A stretch of 64,000 bases of DNA, from positions 46,562,001 to 46,626,000 of the forward strand of contig NC_090349.1 in assembly GCF_035084215.1 (NCBI RefSeq). The letters are read 5' to 3'. Positions 1-47,759 of the stretch are shown here, one piece after another (positions within the stretch are counted from its first letter, which is position 1; every line of letters begins with the position of its first letter). This DNA is from Heptranchias perlo. Taxonomy: Eukaryota. The notes below the pieces were generated by a model, which ran no database searches, was not told where the DNA came from, and saw only the letters and a list, made by a program, of their open reading frames with translations. The translations under genes and the position numbers were made by a program.

Positions 1-58
1 GGACAAATGTAAGGAATCTTACAACACCGGGTTATAGTCCAACAGTTTTATTTGAAAA

Positions 59-95
59 TCACAAGCTTTCGGAGGCATTCTCCTTCGTCAGGTGA
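59..95 (-). ncRNA. Minimal type I hammerhead ribozyme motif (sense to SBNO1)
   Basis: rc: ucac CUGACGA a ggag aaugc cucc GAAA gc UU guga. Confidence 0.7.
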
Positions 96-140
96 GTGTT
101 CTCTGACTATATATGCGGTACCTTCCATGGAATCCCACAC

Positions 141-177
141 TCACCTGACGAAGGAGAAAGCCTCCGAAAGCTTGTGA
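141..177 (+). ncRNA. Minimal type I hammerhead ribozyme motif
   Basis: ucac CUGACGA a ggag aaagc cucc GAAA gc UU guga: stem I, core, stem II and palindromic AAGCUU stem III. Confidence 0.7.
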
Positions 178-339
178 TTTTCAAATAAAACTGTTGGACT
201 ATAACCTGGTGTTGTAAGAAACCCAATCCACACTGATAGCTCCCTCACCATCATCCAAAGCCTTCTAAAATCTTACTCCTTCACCCCACCTTTGCTCACC
301 TCCTAACTCTTCAACCAATTTCTGCTCAGGGACGTGGGA

Positions 340-880
340 TAAGAACATAAGAACACAAGAAATAGGAGCAGGAGTAGGCCAATCGGCCCCTCGAGCCTGC
401 TCCGCCATTCAATAAGATCATGGCTGATCTGATCCTAATCTCAAATCTAAATTCATGTCCAATTTCCTGCCCGCTCCCCGTAACCCCTAATTCCCTTTAC
501 TTCTAGGAAACTGTCTATTTCTGTTTTAAATTTATTTAGTGATGTAGCTTCCACAGCTTCCTGGGGCAGCAAATTCCACAGACCTACTACCCTCTGAGTG
601 AAGAAGTTTCTCCTCATCTCAGTTTTGAAAGAGCAGCCCCTTATTCTAAGATTATGCCCCCTCGTTCTAGTTTCACCCATCCTTGGGAACATCCTTACCG
701 CATCCACCCGATCAAGCCCCTTCACAATCTTATATGTTTCAATAAGATCGCCTCTCATTCTTCTGAACTCCAATGAGCAGAGTCCCAATCTACTCAACCT
801 CTCCTCATATGTCCGCCCCCTCATCCCCAGGATTAACAGAGTGAACTTTCTTTGTACTGCCTCGAGAGCAAGTATGTCTT
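340..880 (-). mobile_element. CR1 LINE 3' fragment
   Basis: ORF2 C-terminus YEERLSRLGLCSLEFRRMRGDLIETYKI...RRNFFTQRVVGLWN, CR1 3' UTR and short-repeat tail. Confidence 0.9.
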
Positions 881-1088
881 TTGTTGATTGGTATAGTAAA
901 GATACTATGCAAGTTGCTCACAGTATGGTTTAAATTCTGTTAGCTTTCCGACATTAGTTAAGCCTCCATTTTATGCTGAGCTCAAAGTGAGTTTCCATAA
1001 GGTTGGCAATGCTGAATTATGCTTACAATTTTTTTTTTAAAGATCACAACATTTTCCAAAATTCCATCTGTTACTTTCACCAACTTAC

Positions 1089-1274
1089 CATCTTCTTCAT
1101 CAGAAGATTCATCTCTGAAAGGGTTGAAGTCATCGTCGCCAGAGCTGACTGAGTGAAAGCTTTCTTCATCGCTGCCTTCACTTTCAGATACTTCAGATTC
1201 ACTTTCTGAAGAGCTGCTCCCAGCAAGACCTTTGCTCTTGCGGGCCTTTTTAACTTCCCTTTTGTCCTCATTAG
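1089..1274 (-). CDS. SBNO1: SBNO1 coding exon 16 (acidic/Ser-rich; gene continues left of the window)
   Basis: 186 nt, phase 1-1. [28 protein letters not shown]...[19 protein letters not shown]. Confidence 0.95.
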
Positions 1275-1384
1275 CTAAAAACCAATAAAACAATTTAAAA
1301 AGGTTCCCATGTAAAAAAAAATTACTACAAAATAAAACCTAGCAAAATACTTCCTGAATTTACATGCATGTGCTTACTTGTAGA

Positions 1385-1900
1385 AAGCTACCTATCAGGT
1401 TCACCTTAAACAAGATTGCTTCACAGGTAGGCGTAAAGAAAACAAGACATCCAGCCACGAAAAGGAGATGGACTAAAAACAGATGGGTTTTGAAGAGGTT
1501 TGCAAAGTCACGGAGAGGAATTCCAAGTATTAGGGCACAGGCCACTGAAGGCTCTGCCGCCAATGGTGGGGTATGGAGAGGCAATATACAGCCCAGAGGA
1601 ATGGAATTTTGGGAGGGTGGGGGTGAAGAGAGAAGAGATAGGGCTGGAGGAGAATGCAAAAATAGGGTGGGCAAGGCCATGGAGGGATTTAGAGATGAGG
1701 GCTTAAGAATTTATGGCATTGGGGACAGGGAGCCAATATAGAAGCGAGGACAGTGGTGATGGGTAAACAGAACTTTGTGTGAGAAGGGCAGAGGATTGGA
1801 ATGGAGAGATTTGGACAGGGAGTTCCGGCAGAGATGGACATAGAGCTAGGAGGTGACAATATTGTCAAGAACCTATAAAGATAAAATGGAGGTTGGAGAT
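1385..1900 (-). mobile_element. Degenerate L2-type LINE 3' fragment
   Basis: Purine-rich + strand. The - strand resembles L2 ORF2/3' ends (...FKTHLF) and parallels 17150-18230 and 44150-44970. Confidence 0.5.
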
Positions 1901-2359
1901 GGGGTGGTTGTTGGAGGGTATGAAAGGGCCAGAATGAATGATAAACCTGAGAAAATACATAAACTAAATGGGACATTAGAAGAGCAGGTGAGTTCTTCTG
2001 GTATCCTGACCAACACTTATCCCTCAACCATCATAAAAATCTTGCCTTTCATTATCTCAATACTGTTTGTGGGGCCTGGCCGTGTACAAATTGGCTGCTG
2101 CATTTCTCTAGATTACAACAGTGACTATACCTCAAAAGTACTTCATTGGCTGAGGTCATGAAAGGTGCTATATAAATGAAGGTTCTTTCTTTCCTAAGCA
2201 GACAGATTTATCCAGGCAGATGTTCACTGTGGGGGGAGAATTCTTTTTTCCAAAACTAATCTAAAATCTAGCTCAAGGATCAAGAATTTTGTAATCTTGA
2301 ACTTAAGTTCAGGGCTCACAATCCAAGTTAATTAATTTGCTTGAATTTACCCTAACCCT

Positions 2360-3810
2360 CGTTCAAGAAAGGGTGTAAGGATAAACCCAGAAACCCTCGG
2401 TGGTGGGGAAGCTTTTAGAAACGATAATCCAGGACAAAATTAGCAGTCACTTGGACAAGTGTGGATTAATTAAGGAAAGCCAACACGGATCTGTTAAAGG
2501 CAAATCGTGTTTAACCAACTTGATTGATTTTTTTGATGAGGTAACATCGAGGGTTGATGTTGTGTATATGGACTTCCAAAGGCGTTTGATAAAGGGGGAG
2601 TGGCAGCATGGATACTAAATTGGCTAAGAGACAGGAAACAGAACTAGTGGTGAGCGGTTGTTTTTCAGACTGAAGGAAGGTACATAGTGGTGTTCCCCAG
2701 GGGTTGGTACTAAAACCACTGCTTTTGACAGTTACATGGGTAAGATGGGTATAGAGGGATATGGGCCAAGTGCAGGCAATTGGGACTAGCTTAGTGGTAT
2801 AAACTGGGCGACATGGACATGTTGGGCCGAAGGGCCTGTTTCCATGTTGTAACTTCTATGATTCTATGATTTTCTTGATATATAATGATGACTTGGACTT
2901 GGGTGTACAGGGCACAATTTCAAAATTTGCAGATGACACAAAACGTGGAAGTGTAGTGAGGAGGGTGGTGATAAGACTTCAAGATGACAGACAGGCTGGT
3001 GGAATGGATGGACACATGGCAGATGAAATTTAATGCAGACAAGTGCGAAGTGATACATTTTGGTAGGAAGAACAAGGAGAGGCAATATAAACTAAATGGT
3101 ACAATTCTAAAGGGGGTGCAGGAACAGAGAAACCTGGAGGTATATGTGCACAGGTAATTGAAGATGGCGGGGCAGGTTGAGAAAGCAGTTAAAAAAGCAG
3201 ACGGGATCCTGGGCTTTATAAAGAGGCATAGAGTACAAATGCAAGGATGTTACAATGAACCTTTTTAAAACACTGGCTTGGCCACAAGTGGGAGTATTGT
3301 GTTCAATTCTGGGCACTTCAGGAAGGATGTGAAGGCCTTAGAGTAGATGCAGAAAAGATTTACTAGAATGGTTTCAGGGATGAGAGACTTCAGCTACATG
3401 GATAGACTGGAGAAGCTGGGGTTGTTCTCAGAGCAGAGAAGGTTGAGAGGAGATTTGATAGAGGTGTACAAAATCATGAGGGGAGTAGATAGAGAAACTC
3501 TTCCCATTGGCAGAAGGGTCAAGAACCAGAGGACACAGATTTAAGGTGATTTAAAAAAAAAGTCGCCTTCGGTTTTTTTGCCAAACACCTCGAGTGGTTA
3601 TGATCTGGAATGTACTGCCTGAAAGGGTGGTGGAGGCAGATTCAATCGTAGCTTTCAAAAGAGAATTGGATAAGTACTTGAAAGGAAAAAAACTTGCAGG
3701 GCTATGGGGAAAGGGCAGGGGTGTGGGACTAACTGGATTGTTCTTGCACAGATCCGGCACGGGCTCGATGGTCAGAATAGCCTCCTCCTGTGCTGTAACC
3801 ATTCTATGAT
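2360..3810 (+). mobile_element. CR1 LINE RT fragment with a nested young CR1 tail (about 2728-2868)
   Basis: KGKSCLTNLIDFFDEVT, KFADDTK, RGDLIEVYKIM motifs with frameshifts; ATTCTATG-type tail. Confidence 0.9.
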
Positions 3811-4859
3811 TCTATACATTATCTACTCCTCCTGGCATTTTAAAAATATACATTTTTTTGAAAAAAGATTTGAGGAGATAAAAGTTCAGCTTTATTGTCT
3901 TCCCTTCACAAGAGCCCCAGGTTCTGTAACCATCTGGTCATACTGAACTTGAAACCCTCTGCAATGTTCTTTAGATGGTTATGTGGTCAAAAGTGCACAT
4001 ATCAAAAGCGAACCCCTCCCCAAATGATATAAAGGAGTCACAACACACCAGAAGGTCCCAAGTTTGGTACCAGACCTGTACTGAGTTAAGCTAATCCTAG
4101 CTAGGTCAGCAGTTGAAGTACTATAACTGACCTCAACATCTCTCAACTAGTGAGGGGAAAAGAAGGATGAACCAAGATTCTTATGTCTGATTACTATCCT
4201 GTAACTGCTGCTGAGAAATGTGTATGTGGATATCGTATTTCCCAGTAACAGCCAAATTGTGCAGAATAGAGTACTTTTATAGCTATTAACTCATGTAGCA
4301 TTGAATTTTCAGTATTTCCTGAGCAGAATTTTGTCAAATTATATTCCTTACATATTATTAAATATAACATTTTATTGACGCAACATTAACCAGCAGACAT
4401 GGAGCTACGGTGTTTTGGAATGTCAAATAGGAAAATAGGTGGAGGCCTGAGTGACTGGAAACATTAATAAGTTTCCCAAAGAGAGGTGGAACAGCTGTTT
4501 ACATTTGCATGTTGCTTTAGCCTCGAGATAACGAGGATTATTACAATGTAATTCTAAGCATTTCTCACCATTGTGATAAAATGGTTTTCATTCAGGGAGC
4601 TTAGCTAAACAGGCAAACGAGTACTCCAAGCTCCCACGTCAAAGGGGGGCCACGTAACTTTGATAGCTTGGTAGGCCAATCTCCTCCACGGAGCTGCCAA
4701 GAGGGGTCAGAGAACGATTTTTTTGTCTCTAGCCAAGTAATCCAACTGATATATGAGCACATATAGCTTGAAACAGAGGCATAGCAAGTCATCTCAAAAG
4801 TGAGTTTTCGCCTCGAACAACAGGAGCTCTGCTTTTTATTGATTTTATGCAACGGGTGA

Positions 4860-5692
4860 TGGGCAGTCTGTGCCTGCATGCAGCAAGACCTGGACAACAT
4901 CCAGGCTTGGGCTGATAAGTGACAAGTAACCTTTGCACCAGGCAATGACCATCTCCAACAAGAGAGAATCTAACCACCTCCCCATGACATTCAACGGCAC
5001 TACCATCGCCAAATCCCCCACAATCAACGTCCTCGGGGTCACCACTGACCAGAAACTTAACTGGACCAGCCACATAAATACTGTGGCTACAAGGTCAGAG
5101 GCCGGGTATTCTGCGGCGAGTGACTCATCTCCTGACACCCCAAAGCCTTTCCAACTTTTACAAGGTACAAGTCGGGAGTGTGATGGAATACTCTCCACTT
5201 GCCTGGATGAGTGCAGCTCCAACACCACTCAAGAAGCTCGACACCATCCAGGACAATTTAGCCCGCTTGATTGGCACCCCATCCACCATCCTAAACATTC
5301 ACTCCCTTCACCACCGGCACACCGTGGCTGCAGTGTGTACCATCTACAGGATGCACTGTAGCAATTCGCCAAGGCTTCTTCGACAGCACTTCCCAAACCC
5401 GCAACCTCTACCACCTAGAAGGATAAGGGCAGCAGGCACAATGGGAGCAACTCCACCTGCACGTTCCCATCCAAGTCACACACTATCTCGACTTGGAAAT
5501 ATATCGCCGTTCCTTCATCATCGCTGGGTCAAAATCCTGGAACTCCCTTCCTAACAGCGCCGTGGTAGAACCTTCACCACAACGACTGCAGCGGTTCAAG
5601 AAAGCGGCTCACCACCACCTTCTCCAGGGCAATTTGAGATGGGCAATAAGTGCTGGCCTTGCCAGCGACGCCCACATCCCATGAACGAATAA
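4860..5692 (+). mobile_element. Non-LTR LINE 3' fragment (CR1/L2 supergroup, second family)
   Basis: RT C-terminus YKVQVGSVMEYSPLAWMSAAPTPLKKLDTIQD...IHSLHHRH; closely similar to 58575-59805. Confidence 0.85.
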
Positions 5693-6841
5693 AACAAATT
5701 GTTGGATTTCATGGTGAAAGCTGTCTTCTATCCAATCACATATTTTATGTGAAATAAATTAGTTTGTTGGTTTACATGTGTCTTGTATTGTTAGTGCTTT
5801 TCAATCCACTTTCTGTAAAGACAGGAGAATGCACAGAGAAAATTTGCGAGATCACAGTAGCCAGCATATGCAACAAGTGCTCTATGTTATGACCCCCCCC
5901 CCAGTCACACTATCATTTAACTAGAAAGTAGGAGATATGACATCCGCTTATGGGAATGCCAGTTACCCTGAACCAAAGTATCTTGTGAAACCTACAAAAT
6001 TTTTAACAGCTCACTTACACAATAATTTTAATGTCTGTATTACATGTATTCAGATTCATTTTTTACTGGAAATGGCTTAACAAATCAATGATTTAGTTTA
6101 CATTAATCAGAGAATGATCCTTGGTTGTTCCTGTGCTCCTGCTGGTGGCCATAGAATATTTGCAGAGGCCCGTAATTTTTTCTCCATGGCAGAACGTGTG
6201 CACATCGGGTAAAGTGGGAGAATTGGAAGTGGTAGGGGAAAGAAACTTTCCAAAGTAATATTAATCAAATAGAAAGAAACTGTATGGATATAAGATATTG
6301 TGCTGCCATACAATGTACAAATTGTATATTCAATTATTAGAAAAAATACGACAGGAACTCTTGGAATATTTCTACATTCCTCAATAGATCTCAAACCACG
6401 CCCACTATTTACTGTGTTGCTGAATATAATTCCATCTGATTTAGAACAGCGTTTGGAACAGCTTTTCAAAGCTCTGTTGCACCCTGTCTTTGACAAGCTG
6501 CAGCTTTTTCTCTTGCAATATTTATAAGTCTACACACCATGTTCGATTCCATGCAGTCTATTAACAGGTTTCTCTGTAAATTAGCCTTTGGTTGGTCCTA
6601 TACAAATATCACACGAGGAACTCCTAGATAAGCAGCAATTAGTAGATTCTCAAGGATCATTCTTGTATATTTTATATAGTTTGGATATAATCTAATCCCA
6701 CTAAATAACTTTGCCTCATCTGATGAGCTGCAGAATTTGCATTCATTCCATCAAACAAAGTGCGATCTTAATTGGAAGAACTTGGGCTTTGTACACTGAT
6801 GAGCATCCCAACATCAACATAAATATTTGGAAAGGTCATAC

Positions 6842-6993
6842 CTTTTCGTTTTTTTCCTTTGTTCGGTCTTGATGGACTGTCAATGGGAGAGTTATGATTG
6901 CTGGGCATGCTCATATCTATCCCCAACAAACTGTACAACTTCTTTCTGTCGGGTGCCGGGAAATGTTTCTCAACTAAAGACTGAAGGACACCT
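6842..6993 (-). CDS. SBNO1: SBNO1 coding exon 15
   Basis: 152 nt, phase 2-1. [50 protein letters not shown] (basic, NLS-like end). Confidence 0.96.
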
Positions 6994-7199
6994 CTGCAAT
7001 AATTAAACAAATACATTTAAGTTTGTGTTCAACAGCTGTATGCCAGTGCCTTGTGCTTGCTTGCTGAGAACTGTGAATTATGTAAAACAAATACCATTAA
7101 ATGGTAATACAACCCATTAACACCTGTAGATATAAAATAGTTAACTAACTCAACTCTACGTGGAAGGATTGCTTTAAAGGATTAATCCTACATTATTCA

Positions 7200-7580
7200 A
7201 TTTGAACAGATTTTCAGCTTCCTCCTACCACAACTGGTAGTGGGGTCTAGTTCTATGGGTGTTCTCAGCTTCATCTAGTTGCCATTATTCACATGCCAGT
7301 CTTCAGTGAGTTGACAGGTTATTTGTCCTAAGGGCTGAGCCCAATCCTGTCCTTCAGTGTTCAAATCCATGCACTTTCCCGAAGGAGTCAGTGAATAATG
7401 ATCAGGATTGGGTACTGGGGATGATTTCCCCCTCTCCTTCCTAGCCCCAGCCCTTGGACAGTTAGGATAACTGTAGAACCCCCACGACTGCCCTGGCTGA
7501 GAAAGGCAAACTCAGCACAGATCAGAGATGGATCTTTCCTGGTCTGTACGGCTGACACTCAGAGCCATGGGCAGCCTCAA
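7200..7580 (-). mobile_element. AmnSINE2-like tRNA SINE
   Basis: rc contains CAGACCAGGAAAG..CTGTGCTGAGTT..TCTCAGCCAGGGCAG..GGGCTAGGAAGGAG. Relatives at about 4030-4240, 13380-13680, 15660-15820, 19390-19680, 34820-34990, 43060-43260 and 62150-62430. Family name is from recalled consensus. Confidence 0.5.
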
Positions 7581-8622
7581 CCAAATAATAAAAAAATGTA
7601 ATACATAATTTAAGAACAAAGCACATATCTCGATGCTTCAAGCAACAGAAGACCTGCTAATAATGATTAAGTTTGTGCATTTGTAAAGAAGAAATCCTTG
7701 CCAGTGGGTCTTCTAATTAAAACCAGAAGATTTTTCTTTTGCTGTGTGCAAATTGGCTGCTGCGTTTCCTACATTACAAATAGTACTTCATTGGCTGTAA
7801 AGCGCTTTGGGATGTCCTGAGGTTGTGAAAGCAGCTATATAAACACAAGACTTTCTTTTTAAAAGTTTGTTTATACGAGTGCACTTTCAAGTGACCAGTC
7901 CTGTGCGCGTTCAGGTTGATCCATGGACAGTAGTGAGCCTCAGATCCACCCATACATGGTATTAGGGAAACTTTGGGCAAAAGAGAATACTTAACTTCCA
8001 TCTATGAAATGGCAAGTTTTTGTAACAAAAATTAGTGCAGGAAGTAATTGTTAGCAATCCTAAAACTATACGGCATTCATAAATTGTCCTAACAAACCAC
8101 ATTAATCCATATAATTTCAAATGTTTGACAAGGGCTGGATCTTATAATGCAAACTATTTAAACAAAATAATTACACTGTACTTCAATGTGAACAGCTATT
8201 TAAGAAACTTCCTTACATTTACCATCCCTCTGATACTTCAGAACGTTTACAAAGCATGCTAGGTACATGCATTTATATAGAGCTTTTAGCACATCTGCAG
8301 GACACTCCAAAGGGCTTCACAGCTAATTAATTACTTTATGAACTTACAACGGCAAATGCAGCAGCCATCAAGGCTAGACTTAGCCCTTCACACAAACCTA
8401 TCCTTCCTTGCGTTAGTTATTTACATATAGAAGCACAGGTAGCAAACAAATAAAATTCTCGTTGGCAACGGTTGCAGGAAAAAATCTCAAGTAGACAGAA
8501 TAACTCCCACATTCCATTTATACAGAAGAGTTCAGTCAATAGTTTTTCTATAAATTACTAGTTTTTTTGAAAACATTATTGAATATTTTACAAATACAGG
8601 CAATCATGCTGTGTAAACATAC

Positions 8623-8720
8623 TTAGCAGTTGAAACAAAATCATTCAGTTCACCACCACCCTCCTCCAGGGCTTCAAGAGTTCTTGCTTCTCCAGTGGAT
8701 TGTAGACCAATAACCACGCA
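8623..8720 (-). CDS. SBNO1: SBNO1 coding exon 14
   Basis: 98 nt, phase 0-2. [33 protein letters not shown]. Confidence 0.97.
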
Positions 8721-10129
8721 CTAAAAGTAATTCCAAAATAAAGCTATTAGAATAAGTTACATCATTTTAATTTACAGCTGTCTGTACAATTTCCCATTTA
8801 CCACTTACTGTGATAGTATTCGGTCAGGTATAGCACAGGCCAGACTCTGAGCAAAGCTCTCTACTCTGTCCCAACAATATACTTTAACTCCAGCTTCAGA
8901 ACAGCACCCACAGTACCACTTTCGTTCCACTGTCCACATCAGCTATCTGTGTGATCTCTGACACTAAAGAGTTAGTGTTAAATTATGGGCTTTTTCATGC
9001 TGTAGATTCATGTTCATGATTAACTGGGCTTAGATCACCAAACTCCTTTCAAGTAGGCACTAACAATGAGCAGAGACTTTTATCCCACAAATCTGGGCCA
9101 GATTCAAACCCACACCCCAAGGATGAAAGAACCACATGCACTGGGTCAGTTACCTCAAAGTAACTTTCATTGGCATGAAAGTACAGTGCACCTTTCACTT
9201 TAATGGAAAAGCTCATAGAAACTCTGATGGTTTCTAATGAATGCTCATAAATTGTTTTCATAAAATGCACTAACAAGCCACATCAAATGAGTCTTGAAAT
9301 ATAAATGCTGTTATCTCAAGTCTCAATAATGGTCTTCAGTGAAATCCAGTTTTCACTGGTTGGCAGCTGGGGTACTGAGGAGCCACAGCATTGAAAAATA
9401 GGACACAGTTGGCTCATTTATCACCCTCTCCTCTAAACTGAAAGAACAAACTTTAATCTATATAGGGCCTTTCACTAGCTCAAGGCATCTCAGACTATTT
9501 CACAGCCAATGAATTACTTTGACGTCGGGTCACTTGCTTTGTCGGCAATTTGCTTACAGCAGGTCCCGTAAATTCCAATGAGATGAATGACCAGATCATC
9601 TGTTTTAGGTATTGGTTGAGAAATAACTATTGGCCAGGACACTAGGAGAACTTCCTAACTCTCTTCTGAATATGCATGGGTTTTTTTTTACATCCACTTA
9701 AGCAAGCCTTAGTTGAATATCTCATTTGAAAGATGCTAGCACCAACAATGCAGCAGAAGCCCTCAGGACAGCATTGAAGTGTCAGTCTAGATGGTGTGCT
9801 CAAGTTTGGGGGTGGGGGTTAAACCCACAACCTTCTGACTCAGAGACAATAATGCTACCATGGAGTCATGGTTCATATAGTTACAAACAGCCTCTATAGA
9901 AAAAAACCAAAACAGTTAAAACTCACTAGCGGGAGCAAATATTACTCACTGCAATTCCTTTTAAGAGGCCATCAACAGACATGTGTTTATACCAGCAGGG
10001 TGGATTTTCAAAAGCACTGCATGATGTTCCTATAAATACTGCAGTACAATTCAGTTTGACGTCTAATGACCAGAATATCCCTACCCATTCTATGGCCCTC
10101 GATTACAATCTGAGAGATGAAGCACCCAG

Positions 10130-11520: not shown

Positions 11521-11624
11521 AACAAGGGGCTACATACTGCATAGAGGGGGGCATTTGAAAATGAATGACCGCAATGTATTCAAGCACAGTAAACCCATGT
11601 GCTAGTATGAAGACCCTACCCTAT

Positions 11625-35727: not shown

Positions 35728-36905
35728 TGCCAAAAGATAGTCAGTTATCCAAAAGGAAAACTGTGCGACCACTGCAGCAAACATTAGTATATAACAGAAA
35801 TAACATGCATTTTAACAAATATAGAAACGTACAGAAACCAACTGGTTGGCAGGGACCCGCTTAAAAAAAAACTATGATCTAAAGGATGTCCAAGATATAA
35901 GACCAAGCTTCTCTCTAGGATTATCTCCTCTTGTTTGGCCTATGCACCTAGGTAAAGACCATTAAGTGTCGAGAAAACCAATAACACTATGAAGGAAGAT
36001 CATTGCAATACTACTCAAGATCACAAGATCCATCTGTACTCAAGATCACAAGTATTGACGTACCTAGCTTTAGAATCATATTTCATTTACACTAGAGTGA
36101 AAAAATTTAAGAGTGGGAATTCTTTTTTAAAAAAAAAAGCTTGACCATAACCACCTCATCTGTAATTTTTAGTTCTACAGAGCCTAGAATGGAATTCAGT
36201 TTTCATGATCACCACATATAGTGATCATCTGGTTGTAATTGATCTGCCCTTGACTGTGTTGCATTAATTTCAGTGGGTTTTGGATTTATTGATGTGGTAC
36301 TGTATCTCTAATCATGGTATTTTTTTCACCATTGGAAAGATATTTGAAATTCTTTCCTGTCCTGAAACAATGGACCATGATTGTAGGTACACGGCTGCTA
36401 ATCTAGTTGTTTTTACTAAGTAAAGAAGATATCCAACTGAAGCTTGGGAGTGCTCATGGCCTGACTCGCAGTGCTCTGCCTCTCCCCGTCCACCCACCAG
36501 ACTGTAATGTCAAGTCTGGAAATGGTGCTTCGTTATCCAGTGAGCACAGTGGTTAAATATACAGCAATCAATATACACTCCACTCACCAGCACTTTAACT
36601 GTGCTCTTCTTTGAAATTAAAGTTTAAAATTTTGAAGTGCTAGTGAGTTCAGCCCATTGTTGAATGCAACACCAATACGTTCCTGTAACTTAACATGTTT
36701 TTCAGTGTTTCAAACTCTGATTCGAAACAGGAGTGTGTTTAAAGTGAGCAGAACATCTTGTTGAACATACAGCAACCAACTGGTTTTCCGTTCAACAATG
36801 TACTCCACTCAGACAGTTATACTGCACGGACATAGTAATCTGTCGGTTATAATCAAACGCGGACCTACCCAATGCACGTCACTTAGAGTGATCCTTACCT
36901 GCTCA

Positions 36906-39900
36906 AGAACAAAAGAAATGGGAGCAGAAGTAGGCCACATAGCCCATCGAGTCGGCTCCGCCATTCAATAAGATCATGGCTGATCTTCGACCTCAACTGC
37001 ACTTTCCCATCCTATCCCCATAACCCTTGATTTCCTTAGAGTCCAAAATTCCATCGATCTCAGACTTGAATATACTCAACGACTGAGCAACACAGCCCTG
37101 TGGAGTAAAGAATTCCAAACATTCACAACCCTCAGAGTGAAGAAAGTCCTTCTCCTCTCAGTCCTAAATGGCCGACCCCTTATCTTGAGACTATGACCCC
37201 TAGTTCTAGACTCTCCAGCCAGGGGAAACAGCCTCTCAGCATCTACTCTGTCAAGCTCTCAGAATTTTATATGTTTCAATGAGATCACCTCTCATTCTTC
37301 TAAACTCCAGAGAATATAGGCCCATTCTATTCAACCTCTCCTCATAGGACAACACTCTCATCCCAGGAACCAATCTAGTGAACCTTTGTTGCACCCCCTC
37401 TAAGATAAGCATACCCTTCCTTAGGTAAGGAGACCAAAACTGTACATAATACTCCAGGTGCGGTCTCACCAGAGCCCTATATAATTGCAGCAAGACCTCC
37501 GTACTCTTATACTCCAAACCCCTTACAATAAAGGCTAACATACCATTTGCCTTCCTAATTGCTTGCTGCACCTGCATGTTAGCTTTGTGATTCGTGTTCA
37601 AGGTCACCCAAATCCCAGACTACCAACATTGCTTGATGGCTCACCTTTTAAAAAATATCCTGCTTTTCTATTCTTCCTACCAAAGTGGGTAATTTCACAT
37701 TTCCCCACATTATACTCCATCTGCCACTTTCTTGTCCACTCACTTAACCAGTCTGTATCCCTTTGCAGCCTTTTTGCATCCCCCTCACAGCTTGCTTTCG
37801 ATCACCAGCAAACTTGGATACATTACAATCTATATCAATGACTTAGATGAGGAGACCAAGTGTAAACAGCTGAAGCCCAAGCACTGATCCTTGCGGCACC
37901 CCACCAGTTACAGTTGCCGCCCCTAAAATGACCCGTTTATCCCTACCCTCTTGTTTTCTGTCAGTTATCAATCCTCTATCCATGGTAATATATTACCTCC
38001 AATCCCATGAGCCCTAATCTTGTGTAACAACCTCTTGTGTGGCACCTTATCGAATGCCTTTTCAATATCCAAATATACTACATTCACTGGTTCCCCCTGA
38101 CTTACCCCGCCAGTTACACCCTCAAAAAACTAACTGATTTGTCAAACACGATTTCCCTTTCATAAGACCATAAGAGATAGGAGTAGGAGTAGGCCATTCG
38201 GCCCCTCGAGCCTGCTCCGCCATTCAATGAGATCATGGCTGATCTGATTTTTTACCTCAACTCCACTTTCCCGCCTTTGCCCCATATCCTTTGACTCCCT
38301 TGCTGATCAAAAATTTGTCTAACTCAGCTTTGAATGTATTCAATGACTCAGCCTCCTCAGCTTTTTGGGGCAAAGAATTCCAAAGATTCACGACCCTCTG
38401 GGAGAAGAAATTCCTCCTCATTTTCGTCTTAAACGGGCGACCTCTTATTCTGAGACTATGCCCCCTAGTTTTAGATTCCCCCATGAGGGGTAACATCCTC
38501 TCAGCATCTACCCTATCTAGTCCCCTCAGAATCTTGTATGTTTCGATAAGGTCTCCTCTCATTCTTCTAAACTCTAATGAGTATAGGCCCAACCTGTTCA
38601 ATCTTTCCTCAGAAGACAACCCTTCCATACCCGCAATCAACCTAGTGAACCTTCTCTGAACTGCCTCCAATGCAAGTATGTCCTTCCTTAAATAAGGGCA
38701 CCAGAATTGTACACAGTACTCCAGGTGTGGTCTCACCAGCACCCTGTACACGTCCCTGCTTTTATACTCAATCACCCCTGAGAAATAAATGCCAATATTC
38801 CGTTTGCCTTCCGGATTACCTGCTGCACCTGTATGTTGACTTTTTGTGTTTCATGTACGAGGACACCCAGATCCCTCTGTACCGCAGCATTTTGTAGTAT
38901 TTCTCCATTCAAATAATATTTTGCTTTTTTATTTTTCCTCCCAAAGTGGATGACTTCACATTTTCCCACATTATATTCCATCTGCCAAATTTTTGCCCAT
39001 TCGCTTAACCTGTCAATATCCTTTTGCAGACACTGTGTCCTCATTACAACTTGCTTTTCCACCTATCTTTGTATCAGCAGCAAATTTGGCCTCAAGACAC
39101 TCTGATCCTTCATCCAAGTCATTGATATATATTGTAAATAGTTGAGGCCCCTGCACTGAGCCCTGCGGCACCCCATTAGTTACAGATTGCCATTTTGAAA
39201 ATGACCCTTTATTTTCTGTTAGTTAGCCAATCCTCTATCCATGCCAGTATATTACCCCCAACACCATGAGCTCTTATCTTGTGCAGTAATCTTTTATGTG
39301 GCACCTTATCGAATGCCTTTTGGAAATCCAAATATACTGCATCCATTGGTTCCCCTTTATCCACCCTGCCCGTTACTTCCTCAAAGAACTCTAATAAATT
39401 TGTCAGACGTGATTTCCCCTTCATAAAACCATGTTGACTCTCCTTGATTGCATTATGAGTCTCAATATCCTGCTACTACTTCCTTAATAATGGATTCTAG
39501 CATTTTCCCAATGACGGATGTTAGGCTAACTGGTCTATAGTTACCTGCTTTCTGTCTCACTCCCTTCTTGAATAGGGGTGTTACGTTTGTGGTTTTCCAA
39601 TCCGCTGGGACCTTTCCAGAATCTAGTGAATTCTGGAAGATAACAACCAATGCATCCACTGTCTCTGTAGCCACTTCCTTCAAGACCCTCGGATGCAAGC
39701 CATCAGGTCCAGGGGACTTGTCAGCCTTTAGACCCATTAGTTTACCAAGTACTTTTTCTCTAGTGATAGTTTTTTAGTTCCTCCCTCCCCATTGCCCCTT
39801 GATTTTCTACTATTATTGGTATATTATTAGTGTCTTCTACTATGAAGACAGATGCAAAATATCTGTTCAATTCCTCTGCCATTTCCTTGTTTTCCATTAT

Positions 39901-40612
39901 CTCCCCAGTCTCATCCTCAAGGGACCAATGTTTACTTTAGCTACCCTCTTCCTTTTTATATACTTGTAGAAGCTTTTACTGTCAGTTTTTATATTTCTTG
40001 CTAGCTTACTCTCAATTTATTTTCTCCCCCTTTTAGTCATCCTTTGCTGGTTTTTAAAGTTTTCCCGATCTTCGGTCTTACCAATAAGCTTTGCCATGTT
40101 GTACGCTTTTTCTTTTAACCTGATACCATCCTTTACTTCCTTAGCTAGCCATGGTTGGTTCACCCTTTTTGTGGAGTCTTTCCTCCTCACAGGGATATAT
40201 TTTTGTTGCGAGTCATAAAATATCTTTTTAATTATTTGCCACTGCTTATCCACCATCATACCATCTAATCTGTTTACCCAGTTCACTTTAGCCAATTCCG
40301 CCCTCATTCCTTTATAATTGCCCTTATTTAAGTTTAATACAGTAGTTTCAGACCCAAGATCCTTGCTCTCAAACTGGATGTGAAATTCTATCATGTTATG
40401 ATCACTGCTTCCCAAGGTTCATAAAACCATGTTGACTCTGCCTAATCATATTATGATTTTCTAAGTGCCCTGTTACTATGTCCTTAATAATAGATTCTAG
40501 CATTTTTCCTACTAATGATGTCAGGTTAACTGGCCTATAGTTCCCTGTTTGCTCTCTCCCTCCTTTCTTGAATAGCGGGGTTACATTTACTACCTTTCAA
40601 TCCACGGGAACC
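36906..40612 (-). mobile_element. Nested CR1 cluster: older CR1 (36906-38160 plus 40418-40612) interrupted by a younger 2.2 kb CR1 (about 38163-40417)
   Basis: ORF2 fragments SSDHNMIEF, KSPGPDGLHPRVLKE, YLDFQKAFDKVPH, LVRPHLEYCVQFW. The host sequence ttcataa(a)accat resumes across the insertion. Confidence 0.9.
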
Positions 40613-41324
40613 TTATGGCAGGAATACTGTTATCAAGCTGTATTTCTTGATCCTAACTTTCAGTGATTTGATGAGCACAATCTATCTCATGCTTTACAAC
40701 TTTGGAGATGTGGCCAGCCTGGTCCTTTGTGGAACTTATGGCTGGAACAATGCTACAAGATTTACTACTTTTCAAACCAGCCCTCCATCTCCATACCAGC
40801 AGCAGAACTTCTCTCACAACTTTCCCTACTATTGGAACTAAGTCCCACTATTATCACATGGATAAGGAAGTTTAAGTACAGAGTCAACTGCTGTGTACAC
40901 TGGGCTGCAACAAATCTGCAACAAACCCCAATGCTATTTCTCCAAATTGTATTGTGCTTCAAATAATCACCAGGTCAAGTTTTACAAAGCACCTGTCCTC
41001 ATTATGGCATCGGGTAACTGCTCAAGGTTTTGCCACTTTATTAATGAAGATCATGGGGAAGCAATTTGGTGCTATATGTGATCTCATTTTACAAGAGCAG
41101 CAGCATCTCTGATTAGTACCTGCAGCACACAAGCAGATTATAAAGCCTGTTCAACAGCTTTTTCACAACATGGGTGTAGCATGACTCGGTATGGGTGCTG
41201 TATGTTGAACATGTAAACACAAAGTAATGAAACAGGATGCCTGCCTCTTAAAATAAAACAGTCATCTAAAATTATGGTTCCTGTGGTATCAATTAGGTTG
41301 GAGAATACCCAGGCTACATCATAG

Positions 41325-42240
41325 TAGGCACAGCACAGGATTCATTAAAAACTTCCCTTTTGAAAGTTACTATTGAATCTGCTTTACCATCCTTTCAGGC
41401 AGTGCATTCCAGATCATTACAAGCCGCAGCATAAAAAAATGTTTCCTCGTGTCGCCTCTGGCTCTTTTGCTGATCACCGGTAAATCTGTGTTTTTTGGTT
41501 ACAGACCCTTCTGCCACTGGAAACAGTTTCTCCTCATTTACTCTATCAAAACCATTCATGATCTTGAACACCTCTATTAAATCTTCCCTTAACCTTCTCT
41601 GTTCTAAGGAGAACCACCCCAGCTTCGAATCAGAAGTTTACAACATGGAAACAGGCCCTTCGGCCCAACATGTCCATGTCGCCCAGTTTATACCACTAAG
41701 CTAGTCCCAATTGCCTGCACTTGGCCCATATCCCTCTATACCCATCTTACCCATGTAACTGTCCAAATGCTTTTTAAAAGACAAAATTGTACCCGCCTCT
41801 GGCAGCTCGTTCCAGACACTCACCACCCTTTGAGTGAAAAAATTGCCCCTCTGGACCCTTTTGTATCTCTCCCCTCTCACCTTAAATCTATGCCCCCTCG
41901 TTATAGACTCCTCTACCTTTGGGAAAAGATTTTGACTATCTACCTTATCTGTGCCCCTCATTATTTCTCCAGTCTATCCACGTAACTGAAGTGCCATATC
42001 CTTGGCACAATTCTAGTAAATCTCTTCTGCACCCTCTCTAAGGCCTTCACATCCTTCCTGAAGTGTGATGCCCAGAAATGGACACAATACTCCTGCTGAG
42101 GCCTAACCAGTGTTTTATAACAGTTTCACATAACTTCCTTGCTTTTGTACTCTATGCCTCTATTAATAAAGCCCAGGATCTTTTATAACAGCCTTCTCAA
42201 CTTGTCCTACCACCTTCAAAGATTTATGTATGTGCACCCC
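41325..42240 (-). mobile_element. CR1 fragment with a nested young CR1 tail (about 41626-41965)
   Basis: The nested piece is nearly identical to the reverse complement of 2728-2855. Confidence 0.85.
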
Positions 42241-42289
42241 ACATGTGGAACAATTTTTTTAAAAAAACAAAGTGAAGTCTTCTTTAGGC

Positions 42290-42820
42290 CCTGGGTCAGT
42301 GGTAGCACACATGCCTGAGTCAGACAGTTGTAGGTTCAAGTCCCACTTGAGACTTGAACATATCGGCTGGCACTTCAGTGCAGTACTGAGGGAGTGCTGC
42401 ACTGTCTGAGATGCAGTCTTTTGGATGAGACAGTAAACCTAGGCTGCATCTGCCCTCGCAAGTGGATATAAAAGATCCTATGGCACTTTTTGAAAATCAG
42501 GGGATTTCTCCCAGTGTCCTGGCCAACATTACAAAAGTGACTACATTTCCAAGGTACTTCAGTGGCTGTGAAGCGCTTCGGGACATCCTGAAGTCTACAT
42601 AAATGCAAGTCTGTCTTTCTTTTAAGATTTATCTCACCGAATGCCTAACAGATTATCTGGTCATATATTTCATTGCTGTTTGTGGGATCTCGGTGTGTGC
42701 AAATTGACTGCTGCATTTCCTACACTACAACAGTGACCACACTTCAAAACAAAAGTACTTAATTCAGTGTAACGCGCCTTGGCGCGTTGTGAAAAGCGCT
42801 GTATAAAGTGGAGTTCTTTT
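42290..42820 (+). mobile_element. Deu-domain SINE with a duplicated tail
   Basis: Same family as 21675-22110; the 3' body occurs twice. Confidence 0.7.
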
Positions 42821-43287
42821 GTCCAATTCACCAATTGAGAGATGTATTTTTAAAAGTGCAAACAGCTAGTATATTCTCCTTCAATAACATCAACACATGA
42901 CTTCCAATTAAAATTCAACAAGACCAAACAGTACAACATTTATACTAAGACCACAATTAGATTTTATACATTGCAAATGCTGCACTTGATCGAATTAGGT
43001 TGCATGATGTCCAGTTAAATATAGCTTTATCTCCACTGCCCTGATGGTTACCAACTTTATCCCATGAGTAGCTGATTCCTATCGGCCAGAGGAGTCCCAA
43101 GTTTATTCTGTGCTGAGTTTGCATTGTAATTGGTCTCAACACCAACATGTGGAAAAAAGGCAGCTAGAGTTCCTGCTGCCGATCAATATCCAACAAGCCC
43201 TGCTGGGAAATGGGTGTACGGATTCTGGGGACAAAAACTGCACAACCTCAACATATGAACTCATCGTGAAGTTTAAGAAACGCCTAC

Positions 43288-43386
43288 CTGCACATTAAGC
43301 ATTGTTGTACCCGTCACAGTCTCTGATTTCACTGCAGAAAGTGGTCCTGTTCCCATACCAAGCTCTAAAGAACTGATAGGCACTGA
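43288..43386 (-). CDS. SBNO1: SBNO1 coding exon 2
   Basis: ttcag|TCA...CAG|gtaggc, 99 nt, phase 0-0. SVPISSLELGMGTGPLSAVKSETVTGTTMLNVQ (human SVPLSALELGL...LLNVR). Not in the ORF track. Confidence 0.9.
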
Positions 43387-45257
43387 CTGAAGAGACAGGA
43401 AAACCATTTGAAGTATTAGACTACATTCTCTGTGAAAAGGTGTTAGGACTAAATCTGTCCCCCCTTCCTAGGTACACAATAAATTAAATACAAGAATGCA
43501 TTCCGCTAACATAATTACATAGTGTGCTATTCAGTTCTAGTATTCTATATACTATGTAAATATTCCAGCATATTAAACGGGACAGGGCAATGTACAGGAC
43601 CAGAAATGAGCACTGCGATTCATGTGGCCATTCTCAACATCTAATACAGTAGAACTGGTTTATTTGCACGTTCATCTACCATGTGACTAATGCTACAAAT
43701 GAAGTGACTGTGACCATCCCGACCACCATTACTGCTGTTAGATCCATTTTTTGAGCAGCTCAGTTTACCCGAGCGCCCCGGGGAGTGATGGCATTTGTTG
43801 CACTTAGAGCTGTAAGTGCCGGTTTAAAATCTTACGCTGGATGCACTGCTAAAAAAGAATTGGCCTCTATCTGCATATTGCATGCCGACTGTAATTACAC
43901 AGCGTGCACGTGCACAATAAAAACAGTGGAAAAGCAAGAGTACCCAGTAACTGCCTGTTTTCACAACTGCAAGGTCAATTCCAAAGCAGATAACCAAAGT
44001 TCCTCTATATTTATATATCTGAATACATATAGAATTCATTAAAAAAATCACTCATTTTGTACTACACTCGAAATACTGTTAAGTAGTGCTCATAATTACA
44101 ACTTATCACCTTTAATATGGTAACGATTTCAAGCCCCAAAGTAGAAACAAACTGAAGAGGAGTTAGGAGAGATGATTAAAAGCCTGGTGGACCAGATTTG
44201 AAGGTGGGAGAGACACAACAGGACACATGCATTTGTGAACAAAATTTGATTGTACACCTAAGACAGCCAAACACTTGGCCACTGAGGGTGGAGCAGAGGA
44301 GATACACAAATGATTACAGTTGGGTAAGGTGGGGCCAAGAATCCTAAATTCAGTGCGTTGGGACTTGGTGGGAGGCATGAGAGCGCCAATGGAGCTCAGC
44401 GAGCACTGGGGTGATAGGCAAGCAGTATGTACCTGAGGGATAGGATGCAAGGAGCAGGGTTCTGAATGAGTTGGAGGTTATGTAGAGTGCAGCTGGGGAG
44501 GCCAGCAAAGAACATGCCAGAGAAGTCGACCCTGGAACCAACAAAGGCATTAATGAGGGTTTCAGCAGTGGTGGGGTTGAGGTTAAGGGTGAAGGAGCGC
44601 AATATTGCAGATGTGGAAGTAGCAACTCTTGATGATGGATTGGATATGGTGTTTGAAGCTCGGGTTCAAACAGGACATTGAGACTGTGCACCTTCAGTTC
44701 AGCCTAAGCAAACAACCAGTAAGGAGGACACAATCCGGCTAGGGTGGGGAATTTTTAAAAACAGAAGCCCAACAGGATAGCTGGGTCTTGTCGAATGTTA
44801 AGTTGCAAATTCTGGCTCATCCTTTACTCCATGTCAGAGAAGCAATCAGATGGCTTAATGGTGATCGTGGACTCATGCTGGACAGTAGCCTGAGCTGGCC
44901 TTGACACACTGTGAAACTGGTCCCATGCCTGTGGATAATGTTACCAAGGGGCAGCATCTAAAGAAGGAATAGGAGGCGGCCAACAATTTTTTTTTAATTC
45001 ATTCTTGAGATATGGATATCGCTGGCAAGGCCAGCAATTATTGCCCAACCCCAGTTGCCCTTGGGAAGGTGGTGATGAACCTTCTTGAACTGCTGCAGTC
45101 TGTATGGTGAAAGTGATCCCACAGTCCTGTAAGGTAGGGAGTTTCAGGATCTTGACCCATCGGCAATATATGTCCAAGTCAGGATGGTATGTGACTTGGA
45201 GGAGAACTTAGAGGTGATGGTGTTCCTATATGTCTGCTGCCTTTGTCCTTCTAGATG

Positions 45258-45572
45258 ATGTGGAGATGCCTGTGATGGACTGGGGTGGACAAATGTAAGG
45301 AATCTTACAACACCAGGTTATAGTCCAACAGTTTTATTTTAAAATCACAAGCTTTCGGAGATTATCCCCTTCATCAGGTGAGTAGTGAAGGAGAGGTTCT
45401 CAAATCGCATATCTTATATTAGGCTGGGACACCATCACACCAATCAAAGGTGTCATTGGTGTTCAGACAGGTTAGCCACGGAAAACAGTAGGTCCCAGTA
45501 TGCTGAATACACAATGTGTCACATTTTAAAATAAGATTGTTGGACTATAACCTGGTGTTGTAAGATTCCTTA
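45258..45572 (-). mobile_element. Penelope-like element (family A) with a partial inverted arm, nested in a LINE
   Basis: TSD cttctagatg at 45248-45257 and 45573-45582. Hammerhead core on - at 45345-45381. Confidence 0.8.
45345..45381 (-). ncRNA. Minimal type I hammerhead ribozyme motif (sense to SBNO1)
   Basis: rc: ucac CUGAUGA a gggga uaa ucucc GAAA gc UU guga. Confidence 0.7.
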
Positions 45573-46104
45573 CTTCTAGATGGTAGAAGTCATGTTTGTT
45601 TGGGAGGTGCTGTCGAAGAAGCCTTGTCGAGTTGTTATGGAACTTTGGCATTTCCGAGGTGGCAGCTATTGAAGGAGATTTGGTGGCTATATTAGGGCAG
45701 GCAAAGTAGAACCAAGTGACAGTTCTGCCATGGAGGAGAGACTATGGAGAACGATGCAATGGTTGGGCTGCAGCAAATGCAGAGTTCACGAGAGGCAAGG
45801 TGGGTTCATGTGTTACAGATGCAGTCCCAAGAACGTCAGTGGTGATGTTGATCCGGGTAATCTGTGATACTGACATGGAGGAAACGAAAATGGGATTTTA
45901 ACATGAAATTGTGGCAGAGTGCAGAGCTGGGTGGCAGCAACGCATTTGAGGACTGCAGAAAGGAAAGTGAGGGTTAGGTATTGGGTAGTAGTTGCAGAAG
46001 ATGGAGGGCGTTTTTTTTTAAAAAGAGAGAGGCTGACAAACCAAGACATGCTTCAATTCAGATAATCACAAACTATGTGTAAGCAAGGGCAAACTTTTCC
46101 ATCT

Positions 46105-46325
46105 ACTATAAGTGGATAGGATCTGGAATGCACTGCCTGAGAGGATGACGGAGACAGATTTGATCATGGCCTTCAAAAGGAACTGGATAAGTACTTGAAA
46201 GGAAAAAATTTGTAGGGCTACGGGGATTGGGCAGGGAGTGGGACCAGCTGGATTGCTCTTGCATAGAGCTGGTGCGGACTCGATGGGCCAAATGGCCGCC
46301 TTCCATGCTTTAACCTTTCTATGAT
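46105..46325 (+). mobile_element. CR1 3' tail
   Basis: Matches 3600-3810. Confidence 0.8.
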
Positions 46326-47343
46326 AAACTAAATTGGTTTAATAGGGCGGCTTGGAAAAATGAGGTGCTACTGAAATTTCCAACAGTACCGATCAAAATC
46401 TCAATATTCTTAGTCCGTTCATTTTGTAGACTCAGATTTTGTAGATGAATTAGGTGTACGCAACCCTAACAAAAACACTCCACGATGCTCTTTTCACTGT
46501 GTTTTTGCATTGTACAAAACAGAACATTAGTATGTGCAGTTACCTGGCAAATAAAGAACAATTGCATGCTTTAAGTAGACTAGCAGGAAATCTAGATGCT
46601 GCTTTAATGGTGGAAGGGAAGGTAATTCTGTTCAGTGATTCCAGTGGCGTGATCTCCTAATAAAATTATCTGGGGACTATGACAATTACAGGCCTTAGGG
46701 CTCCAAATTAACACAAGCTTACTACAAGGAGACCAGCAACAATCTGAAGTAATTAGTTTGTGAATAATGTGGTACCACCCTTGTACTGATTGAGGTCTGA
46801 GCAGCTCCATTCCCTCTCCAAATAAGGACTGGGGGAATACTACATGACACAAGCTATCCTTTAATTTGAGATAAACCATTCCTGCTCAAGACTTGATTGA
46901 TCTACAGCATTCACCAAAGACCAGGATGGAAGAGAGAGAAAACACATCAATAAGGGGACTTTTTTTAAAAAAATGTTTTATCCGCTTATTTTGAAGTCTT
47001 TCTAGACTCTCATTTCCACTGCTGACATGATGAATGGGCAAATGGCCTGCTGCAGACCTCCACCAATACCTCCTTTGGCCAGACCCAGGAGGATCAAGGT
47101 ACCAAGCCAGGCAGTATAGTCTAATTTTCCAGCCCAATACAGGAATAATCTGAAACCTCCACTTGGCAGAGTGATGAAGCCTATGCTCTCCTTACTGAAA
47201 GCCATCTCAACCCACAGGTGAGCAAAGAAAAGTACAGAACAATGACAAAGAAGCTGTAATGTGGAGATGCCGGTGATGGACTGGGGTTGACAATTGTAAA
47301 CAATTTTACAACACCAAGTTATAGTCCAACGATTTTATTTGAA

Positions 47344-47384
47344 ATTTACAAGCTTTCGGAGGCTTCCTCCTTCCTCAGGTAAAT
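47344..47384 (-). ncRNA. Minimal type I hammerhead ribozyme motif (sense to SBNO1)
   Basis: rc: auuuac CUGAGGA a ggag gaagc cucc GAAA gc UU guaaau. Confidence 0.7.
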
Positions 47385-47401
47385 GTCAGGGAGTTCCTGA
47401 C

Positions 47402-47442
47402 ATTTACCTGAGGAAGGAGGAAGCCTCCGAAAGCTTGTAAAT
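47402..47442 (+). ncRNA. Minimal type I hammerhead ribozyme motif
   Basis: auuuac CUGAGGA a ggag gaagc cucc GAAA gc UU guaaau. Confidence 0.7.
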
Positions 47443-47759
47443 TTCAAATAAAATCGTTGGACTATAACTTGGTGTTGTAAAATTGTTTACAAAAGAAGCT
47501 GTAGGAGAGGAAACAAAAAAAAAAACTGAAGAGACAGATAGAGTAATAACCAGAGGCTAGAAATTAAACTGTGCCATATTTCTGCACTGAAGCTTAATGT
47601 GTTTGTACCAAACTATTCTGTCTACCAGTTTAGTTCTAACGAGTTATCTCCTAAAACAGTGGTCAAGAGAGCTTACTGCAACACATTCCACTTTTGTACG
47701 ATAATACTGCATACAACAATTTCCAGGCTTTGGCAATTGAAGAAACACTAAGCTTGTCA

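Follow-up and report, generated by a model that had tools for sequence, protein, structure and literature searches.

The stretch of DNA analysed here (the window) comprises 64,000 nucleotides of the genome of the shark Heptranchias perlo (assembly GCF_035084215.1, contig NC_090349.1, positions 46,562,001 to 46,626,000) and is crossed by a host gene, probably strawberry-notch, SBNO1-like; the Pfam domain AAA_34 was detected in 4/4 of its exon frames tested (E 4e-19 to 5e-14). Five short related inserts, numbered copies 1 to 5 and very probably derived from a Penelope-like element (PLE), lie in introns of this gene: copies 2-5 in the interval from the first coding exon detected (~51.7-51.8 kb) to the following one detected (~28.3 kb), copy 1 past the final exon detected (~1.0-1.3 kb), in a part into which the gene presumably extends. 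Together they carry seven minimal hammerhead ribozyme motifs (min-HHR), and the structural properties of the inserts, of the motifs and of the sequence downstream of them are the basis of the interpretation developed below; the coordinates are collected in Table 1.

A preliminary description of the sequence had reported the inserts as a set of five, 135-315 bp long, four of them bordered by duplications of the target site (TSDs) of 10-15 bp, and both points were confirmed: when five segments of the inserts were used as blastn queries against the window (word size 7, E<=1), the searches recovered all five at the positions first given and no sixth copy, the remaining matches in the window being at chance level (12-31 nt), and the TSD is exact in the four inserts in which it can be checked (15, 11, 10, and 12 bp in copies 2, 3, 4, and 5), a count that covers copies 2-5, as copy 1 is interrupted by the start of the window. 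At the checkable inserts the length of the TSD is variable and poly(A) is absent; the TSD of copy 2 lies inside a repeat which, from the reading frame found there, we assume to be CR1-like.

Positions within the element are numbered from the predicted hammerhead cleavage site (+1 onward in the 3' direction). All four complete long arms share an end motif at +91, copy 3 running on to +93, and this fixed 3' end is to be set against the 5' break point and the upstream sequence, which are dissimilar in every copy. In four of the five inserts a second arm, 96-100% complementary to the first, is joined to it head to head; these inverted arms stop short, at +46, +35, +53, and +55 in copies 1, 2, 4, and 5, and the tail absent from them measures 56 nt in copy 2, 38 nt in copy 4, 36 nt in copy 5 and presumably 45 nt in copy 1, being one-sided in 4/4 palindromes. 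In copy 5 the long arm reaches +91 (47259) and the inverted arm ends at 47491, while in copy 2 the inverted arm, which shows 0/63 differences from the long arm, has its motif truncated at C3. Copy 3 is single-armed and starts with 8 nt that directly repeat the 3' end of the element itself (35592-35599/35719-35726), sharing one base with the TSD; this start may have arisen as a partial tandem, through re-initiation, or by the copying of more than one unit of a 127-nt circle. With the exception of this terminal repeat, no head-to-tail tandem of two hammerhead units is present in the window. In copy 4, the stretch of ~140 nt upstream of the hammerhead matches nothing elsewhere in the window below E 0.88, and the single 33-residue frame tried gave no Pfam match; it may be either a longer part of the pseudo-long terminal repeat (pLTR) of the element or captured host DNA.

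The two arms of an insert differ at 0-2 sites (4/292 positions over four inserts), a near-identity that points to young insertions, provided that the arms have not been made alike by hairpin repair; between copies the divergence is 4-16%, with two groups, 1/2/4 and 3/5. Since the arms are alike within inserts while the copies are 4-16% apart, the differences between copies appear to be mostly inherited from different source elements. The predicted cleavage site is traversed by 8/9 arms.

Table 1. Coordinates of the host gene, the inserts and their RNA motifs in the window (numbers preceded by + in the remarks count from the predicted cleavage site).
Feature	Position	Strand	Remarks
Host gene	985..51879	-	exon peptides; Pfam AAA_34 PF13872
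Copy 1, head-to-head palindrome	1..219	-	long arm on minus strand, cut by window start at +62
Copy 1, spacer	100-136		37 nt
Copy 1, inverted arm	137-219		ends at +46; 2/83 sites differ from long arm
Copy 2	32935..33124	+	inverted arm 32936-32998, beginning at +35; 7-nt spacer; long arm to +91
Copy 2, left TSD	32920..32934	+	15 bp; right TSD 33125-33139; inside CR1-like repeat (presumed)
Copy 3, single arm	35593..35727	+	to +93; TSD 11 bp, 35582-35592/35728-35738
Copy 4	45258..45572	-	long arm on minus strand to +91 (45258); TSD 10 bp, 45248-45257/45573-45582
Copy 4, short inverted arm	45523-45572		covers +4..+53; 2/50 sites differ from long arm
Copy 4, upstream sequence	45382-45522		~140 nt
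Copy 5, perfect palindrome	47259..47491	-	0/96 mismatches; 5-nt spacer; TSD 12 bp, 47247-47258/47492-47503
AC-rich tail (+56..+91), long arm only	33089..33124	+	also 35690-35727 (+), 45258-45293 (-), 47259-47294 (-)
Second conserved RNA structure (shown for copy 2)	33055..33106	+	outer stem +22..+27/+68..+73
Inner hairpin of the same, +40..+55	33073-33088	+	G-C to A-U between subfamilies
min-HHR, copy 1 long arm	59..95	-	C3 at 91
min-HHR, copy 1 inverted arm	141..177	+	C3 at 145; predicted cleavage after 173
min-HHR, copy 2	33001..33037	+	C3 at 33005; predicted cleavage after 33033
min-HHR, copy 3	35600..35640	+	C3 at 35606; stem I 6 bp, stem II 5 bp
min-HHR, copy 4	45345..45381	-	C3 at 45377; N7 = U
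min-HHR, copy 5 long arm	47346..47382	-	C3 at 47378; stem I variant uuac/guaa
min-HHR, copy 5 inverted arm	47404..47440	+	C3 at 47408

The seven motifs of the preliminary description are exactly those returned, on both strands, by a relaxed descriptor (stem I of at least 4 bp, CUGANGA, 0-1 extra nucleotide, stem II of at least 4 bp, GAAA, 0-6 nt, UH, stem I'), with C3 at +145, +33005, +35606, +47408, -91, -45377, and -47378; 150 fourth-order Markov simulations yielded a mean of 0.013 matches per 64 kb and a maximum of 1. All seven have the CUGANGA core, one extra nucleotide before G10.1, the G10.1-C11.1 pair, GAAA and UH, with U at H17; as already described, N7 is C, G or U, loop II varies and stem I occurs as ucac/guga or uuac/guaa. 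Compared with copies 1 and 2, the N7 = U of copy 4 also amounts to a CpG-to-TpG change. Positions 15.2-16.2 are palindromic and leave little or no stem III or loop 3, the palindrome being AGCU in the four variants extracted, while GAAAGCUU is found in 7/7 motifs; of the AAGCUU first proposed for stem III, the palindrome proper is AGCU (A15.1-U16.1), the outer A-U being one that would pair A14 with U17 of the cleavage site. Copy 5 carries one and the same motif twice, and the two motifs of copy 1 differ by one loop base, so that the seven, which come from five insertions and two subfamilies, are not counted as independent evidence.

The identification of the motifs as minimal type I hammerheads of the Penelope type holds for all seven. 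The consensus for PLEs is CUGANGAH-G..C-GAAAN-palindrome-NU-H with an AU-rich 3' flank (Cervera and De la Pena 2014, PMC4209133), and the shark motifs fit it, with their short helix I, lack of loop 3 and AU-rich 3' flank; the G-C-U-U after GAAA is that of the Chrysemys (turtle) and Philodina rows of Fig. S3 in that paper, and the stem I ucac/guga that of the lamprey row, cartilaginous fish being absent from the rows of Fig. S3/Table S1 compared. The helix II of 4-5 bp is at the short end of the published range, and no linked open reading frame (ORF) was found for the shark motifs. In the same source, min-HHRs are reported by the thousands per genome in coelacanth and Xenopus, mostly as singles from truncated PLEs, and dual motifs 100-700 bp apart on opposite strands occur in metazoan PLEs, an arrangement which the opposite-strand pairs of the shark inserts share.

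To analyse the distribution of variation, each insertion was represented by its long arm (five of the nine arms) and the four inverted arms were set aside; all the values that follow refer to five related copies. The preliminary description had inferred selection on the ribozyme from the invariance of its catalytic core; the core is indeed invariant (0/11 columns), but not significantly more so than the 3' flank, in which 14/87 columns vary (Fisher p 0.17; p 0.068 for an extended core of 17 columns) and the longest invariant run is 15 nt. Within the motif, the variable positions belong to N7, to loop II, to stem I and to the inner part of stem II, and 9/20 non-core columns vary while 17/17 core columns do not (p 0.0014, post hoc). 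The covariation claimed between copies is slight, the compensatory change in stem I being a single event, restricted to one insertion (copy 5). A structure of four helices, comprising those of the ribozyme and those found 3' of it, is paired in 94.5% of cells, a value as high being reached by 3/500 shuffles, and shows both-sided changes in 3/23 pairs, three being reached by 37/500 shuffles; these changes fall in stem I, in stem II (at its fifth pair, which is G-C in copies 3 and 5 and A-U in copy 4 but does not form in copies 1 and 2) and in the hairpin 3' of the ribozyme. The pattern is consistent with a structural constraint on the source lineage that would reach beyond the ribozyme, a signal too thin to prove catalysis; selection on the ribozyme in the source lineage appears plausible, if weakly supported, and, as the differences between copies come mostly from distinct source subfamilies, any such selection would have acted on the source elements.

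The structure 3' of the hammerhead, found at the same positions in the other long arms, consists of an invariant outer stem of 6 bp and of an inner hairpin with a compensatory change; in 2/4 palindromes (+53, +55) the 3' base of the inner hairpin coincides with the start of the inverted arm, and the structure is a candidate element for the positioning of the reverse transcriptase (RT). At the 3' end, 3/4 junctions (33124/33125, 35727/35728, 45258/45257) read CACATCAT, the last 3, 1, and 3 bases being assigned to the TSD, while copy 5 has no overlap between element and target; that CA should stand at the start of two or more of three targets has a chance probability of ~0.012 (post hoc). The overlap could reflect priming by 1-3 nt of microhomology or a preference of the endonuclease. 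The junction of copy 3 continues as ATG, a hint that the ORF of the source might start at about +93; two candidate frames running into this putative ATG gave 0 matches at E<=10. In a single case, the short arm of copy 4, the start at +4 is only three bases away from where cleavage is predicted, which might mean that the template had been cleaved or that a second RNA was involved.

Folding was predicted for each motif in a context of 440 nt, or less where limited by an edge. In 6/7 motifs the predicted probability of stem II, P(stem II), is 0.0 (for copy 4, <=0.002 over five window sizes); copy 3 holds the only motif for which a hammerhead fold is predicted in context (0.99), and this motif runs antisense to the host gene. 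The motifs in place are therefore probably masked, for the most part, by their own palindromes and inactive according to these predictions. Because paired motifs lie on opposite strands, no transcript carries a tandem dimer from one insert, and, as they also mask each other, dimer cleavage is not readable from these loci. Near-perfect hairpins of 63-97 bp are expected in the host pre-mRNA at 1-219, 32932-33072, and 47294-47492, and may possibly serve as substrates for adenosine-to-inosine editing or for small-RNA production. The top three Rfam matches of the window are microRNA models on the palindromes; a microRNA identity was rejected, since all three score below the gathering threshold and the palindromic structure accounts for the matches.

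In our view, the five inserts are very likely pLTR ends, heavily truncated at 5' and dead on arrival, that derive from an autonomous PLE with an endonuclease (EN+), recently active in a shark lineage. The GIY-YIG endonuclease of the element would nick both target strands, 10-15 bp apart; the first nick would prime the RT at a fixed internal site of the RNA, +91 to +94, at the end of the AC-rich tail, an end point read directly from the copies, the enzymology being conjectural; a second copy would begin 36-56 nt nearer the 5' end, in two cases at the base of the conserved hairpin, and would be joined to the first head to head, as the end points in the inserts record, either through priming at the second nick or through fold-back of the first complementary DNA (cDNA). 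Synthesis would halt soon after passing the hammerhead, where the arms are seen to end, repair would leave the TSD observed, and the hammerhead would be carried along as a standard part of the pLTR. Twin priming and fold-back leave an identical sequence at the central junction, so that these copies do not separate them; as 8/9 arms cross the cleavage site, the template would have been uncleaved RNA. The staggered nicks, the internal priming and the second upstream product are postulated by analogy with work on the anole element discussed below. The preliminary description had proposed a recently active, non-coding retroelement family; retrotransposed inserts are supported, and their youth by the arm divergence given above, but a distinct non-coding family is not established, the anatomy being that of 5'-truncated PLE ends.

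Indeed, every architectural feature of the shark inserts has already been described for PLEs, and the finding adds a family from a shark to a kind of element already known. The signature of PLEs is an inverted 5'-truncated copy with a tail of 30-40 bp at one end only (Craig et al. 2021, PMC8557442; Arkhipova et al. 2013, PMC3846280), and two of the four shark tails (36 and 38 nt) fall inside this range; head-to-head palindromes, TSDs of 8-10 bp and unrelated DNA between solo pLTRs are described in the study that covers Pen2 and Pen3 of Adineta (PMC3846280), and partial tandems by re-initiation are ordinary PLE behaviour (PMC8557442). The shark inserts are thus like the inverted-pLTR insertions of EN+ PLEs (Penelope/Poseidon, Neptune) in the tail-shortened inverted copy, the TSD, the 5' truncation, the partial tandem and the DNA between pLTRs (PMC3846280, PMC8557442), whereas their TSDs are longer (10-15 against 8-10 bp; PMC3846280) and their total length is only 135-315 bp. 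Another close system is the Poseidon element of the anole Anolis carolinensis (PAc; Frangieh et al. 2024, PMC11167929), whose protein cuts and extends both target strands, uses uncleaved RNA, and initiates reverse transcription internally, at two sites separated by the length of one tail and mostly at 111-118 nt of the ORF; the hammerhead cut being at 26, this start lies 85-92 nt past it, in an AC-rich stem-loop. The shark 3' end, ~90 nt past the predicted cut in AC-rich structured RNA, the two starts and the uncleaved template correspond to this description. The two systems differ in that the PAc ORF begins at stem II, whereas no frame is open from stem II in the shark arms, and in that initiation by PAc is reported to be non-homologous to the cut DNA, whereas 3/4 shark junctions suggest 1-3 nt of microhomology (PMC11167929).

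A stronger, joint claim, which we put forward tentatively and regard as rather unlikely to hold in all its parts, is that the inserts are frozen records of PLE integration, in which both nicks prime at two structure-defined sites of the pLTR RNA, the first at the end of the AC-rich tail through pairing of 2-3 nt with the target and the second at the 3' base of the covarying hairpin, the cDNAs being then joined head to head, and in which the short arm of copy 4 derives from ribozyme-cleaved RNA; if true, that arm would be the first genomic trace of cleavage by a PLE hammerhead in vivo.

Several points weigh against an origin from an autonomous PLE or against the details just outlined. The search for an autonomous partner with RT and GIY-YIG domains, suggested in the preliminary description, brought to light nothing linked to the arms: eight PLE-type motif patterns run against the six frames of the window gave no convincing match, with only CR1-type RT motifs and isolated weak ones; a profile of the arm translation (four arms) found 0 matches at E<=0.001 among 1.84 billion protein representatives; an exact 24-nt arm pattern, sought in GTDB contigs as possible host contamination, gave 0; and Pfam returned weak matches only for seven repeat-derived frames (RVT_1, E 0.04; KA1, E 0.06). 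No RT or GIY-YIG sequence tied to the arm was thus found in the window or by these searches, which were weak, having 17-26 informative residues and covering no eukaryotic genome collection. Membership in the PLEs is accordingly suggested by just two features, the RNA motif and the architecture of the insertions. Over the whole window, a hammerhead family is absent among 14 Rfam matches up to E 10, a miss that would be unsurprising for minimal motifs without stem III. The spacing that matches PAc may be a coincidence, the figure of 111-118 not being tied to either start site in the passages of PMC11167929 that give it, and copy 3 could derive from a short circular or tandem unit. Finally, the folding results are predictions. 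Among them, the double-hammerhead dimer comes out 2.5 kcal/mol less stable than two monomers in 4/4 variants, the cofold minimum being a stem-II-swapped dimer, and this energy is soft evidence, as nearest-neighbour energies ignore core contacts.

The alternative that survives best concerns function and is compatible with a PLE origin: the hammerhead may be vestigial, kept through a constraint on the whole pLTR end (protein binding, promoter, RT start) or through the youth of the family, its cleavage being no longer needed, a possibility that we take seriously although we doubt it. It would agree with the core being not significantly more invariant than the 3' flank, with the CpG-to-TpG origin of N7 = U in copy 4 and with H17 = U, and with the dimer energies and swapped minimum just given; moreover, catalytic mutants of the anole hammerhead still insert in vitro (PMC11167929), and 8/9 Xenopus dimers did not cleave (bioRxiv 10.64898/2026.07.22.740005). 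It is opposed by the concentration of variation in the non-core columns of the motif (p 0.0014), by the two both-sided changes that preserve stems I and II, by the retention of the motif across metazoan PLEs (PMC4209133), and by the observation that the anole hammerhead cleaves when its protein is present (PMC11167929).

Improbable, in our view, is a separate non-autonomous, non-coding family, of the type of a non-LTR retrozyme or similar to a short interspersed element (SINE), spreading through a short RNA of its own, which might be circular and ~127 nt long, with a PLE protein acting in trans. None of the five inserts is long or coding, and the 8-nt repeat at the start of copy 3 would fit a more-than-unit copy of such a circle or tandem; in addition, tandem non-LTR retrozymes derived from pLTRs, with a mean consensus of 363 bp, are reported from one chondrichthyan genome (bioRxiv 10.64898/2026.07.22.740005), and solo pLTRs of Adineta are sufficient for integration in trans (PMC3846280). 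[quoted passage not shown] The window holds no head-to-tail tandem of two units, and the 5' break points and upstream sequence are different from copy to copy; PAc RNA, furthermore, requires the first 172 nt of the ORF, well beyond the RT start site, and copies ending at that site would lack the binding signal (PMC11167929), while a partial tandem by re-initiation, which copy 3 may be, belongs to the ordinary behaviour of PLEs (PMC8557442).

The two remaining explanations are both very improbable. DNA transposons of the foldback or miniature inverted-repeat (MITE) type have symmetric terminal inverted repeats and a constant TSD length, and an element of this kind with a hammerhead-like string by chance in its inverted repeats would explain the long, near-perfect arms of the 4/5 palindromic inserts but not TSDs of 10-15 bp, asymmetric arms with a one-sided tail, a single-armed copy 3, or seven motifs against the 0.013 expected. 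Co-option of the intronic motifs for SBNO pre-mRNA processing, after the manner of conserved amniote intronic hammerheads, might be suggested by the three motifs (C3 at 91, 45377, and 47378) on the strand of the host gene and by the existence of domesticated intronic hammerheads (PMC6155905), but all three have a predicted P(stem II) of 0.0 (copy 4, <=0.002 over the five window sizes), the inserts are young and bear TSDs, and self-cleavage of minimal motifs in monomer form is poor or absent (PMC4209133).

Two arm translations of 40 residues gave one protein match each, both to gene models of Heptranchias perlo without a PLE domain: a paraoxonase-2-like model (22/24 identical), which carries 21 residues of the arm in the sense frame, and an LZIC isoform X1 model (25/28 identical), in which the antisense arm forms part of a longer N-terminus and is left at about the antisense donor point. 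Since these models belong to other loci, the repeat is dispersed; the arm may have entered them either by exonisation or as an artefact of gene modelling. The antisense of stem I plus C3-U4-G5 reads CAG/GT, with a perfect CAG/GTGAGT donor in copy 1, and the donors antisense to the motifs with C3 at 145, 33005, 35606, and 47408 are correctly oriented for SBNO pre-mRNA.

Some other features of the window may be mentioned. An unrelated perfect inverted repeat of 28 nt (24721-24748/24887-24914), its halves separated by 138 nt, encloses a second, weaker inverted pair and resembles a small repeat of MITE or SINE type; about 13.8 kb of the window is self-matching (e.g., 37251-40418, 47759-48857, and 58975-59813), presumably, to judge from RT motifs, for the most part decayed pieces of CR1-type long interspersed elements; and upstream of the gene's first coding exon, at 55-56 kb, lies a GC-rich stretch.

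No description of this shark family was found in the literature, and Repbase/Dfam and the supplements of the 2026 preprint, which lay outside the scope of the search, may list it. The finding gives a name to a young repeat of high density which neither ORF tracks nor Rfam reveal but which enters gene models, as the two Heptranchias proteins testify. According to the relevant passages of the literature, the origin of the inverted and tandem structures of PLEs and the cleavage of their hammerheads in vivo are open questions (PMC8557442, PMC11167929); tiny, TSD-flanked inserts of low divergence would permit direct counts of junction microhomology, of the position of the second start and of truncation at the cleavage site, and, at five per 64 kb, a shark genome would hold enough copies for statistical tests of these three points.

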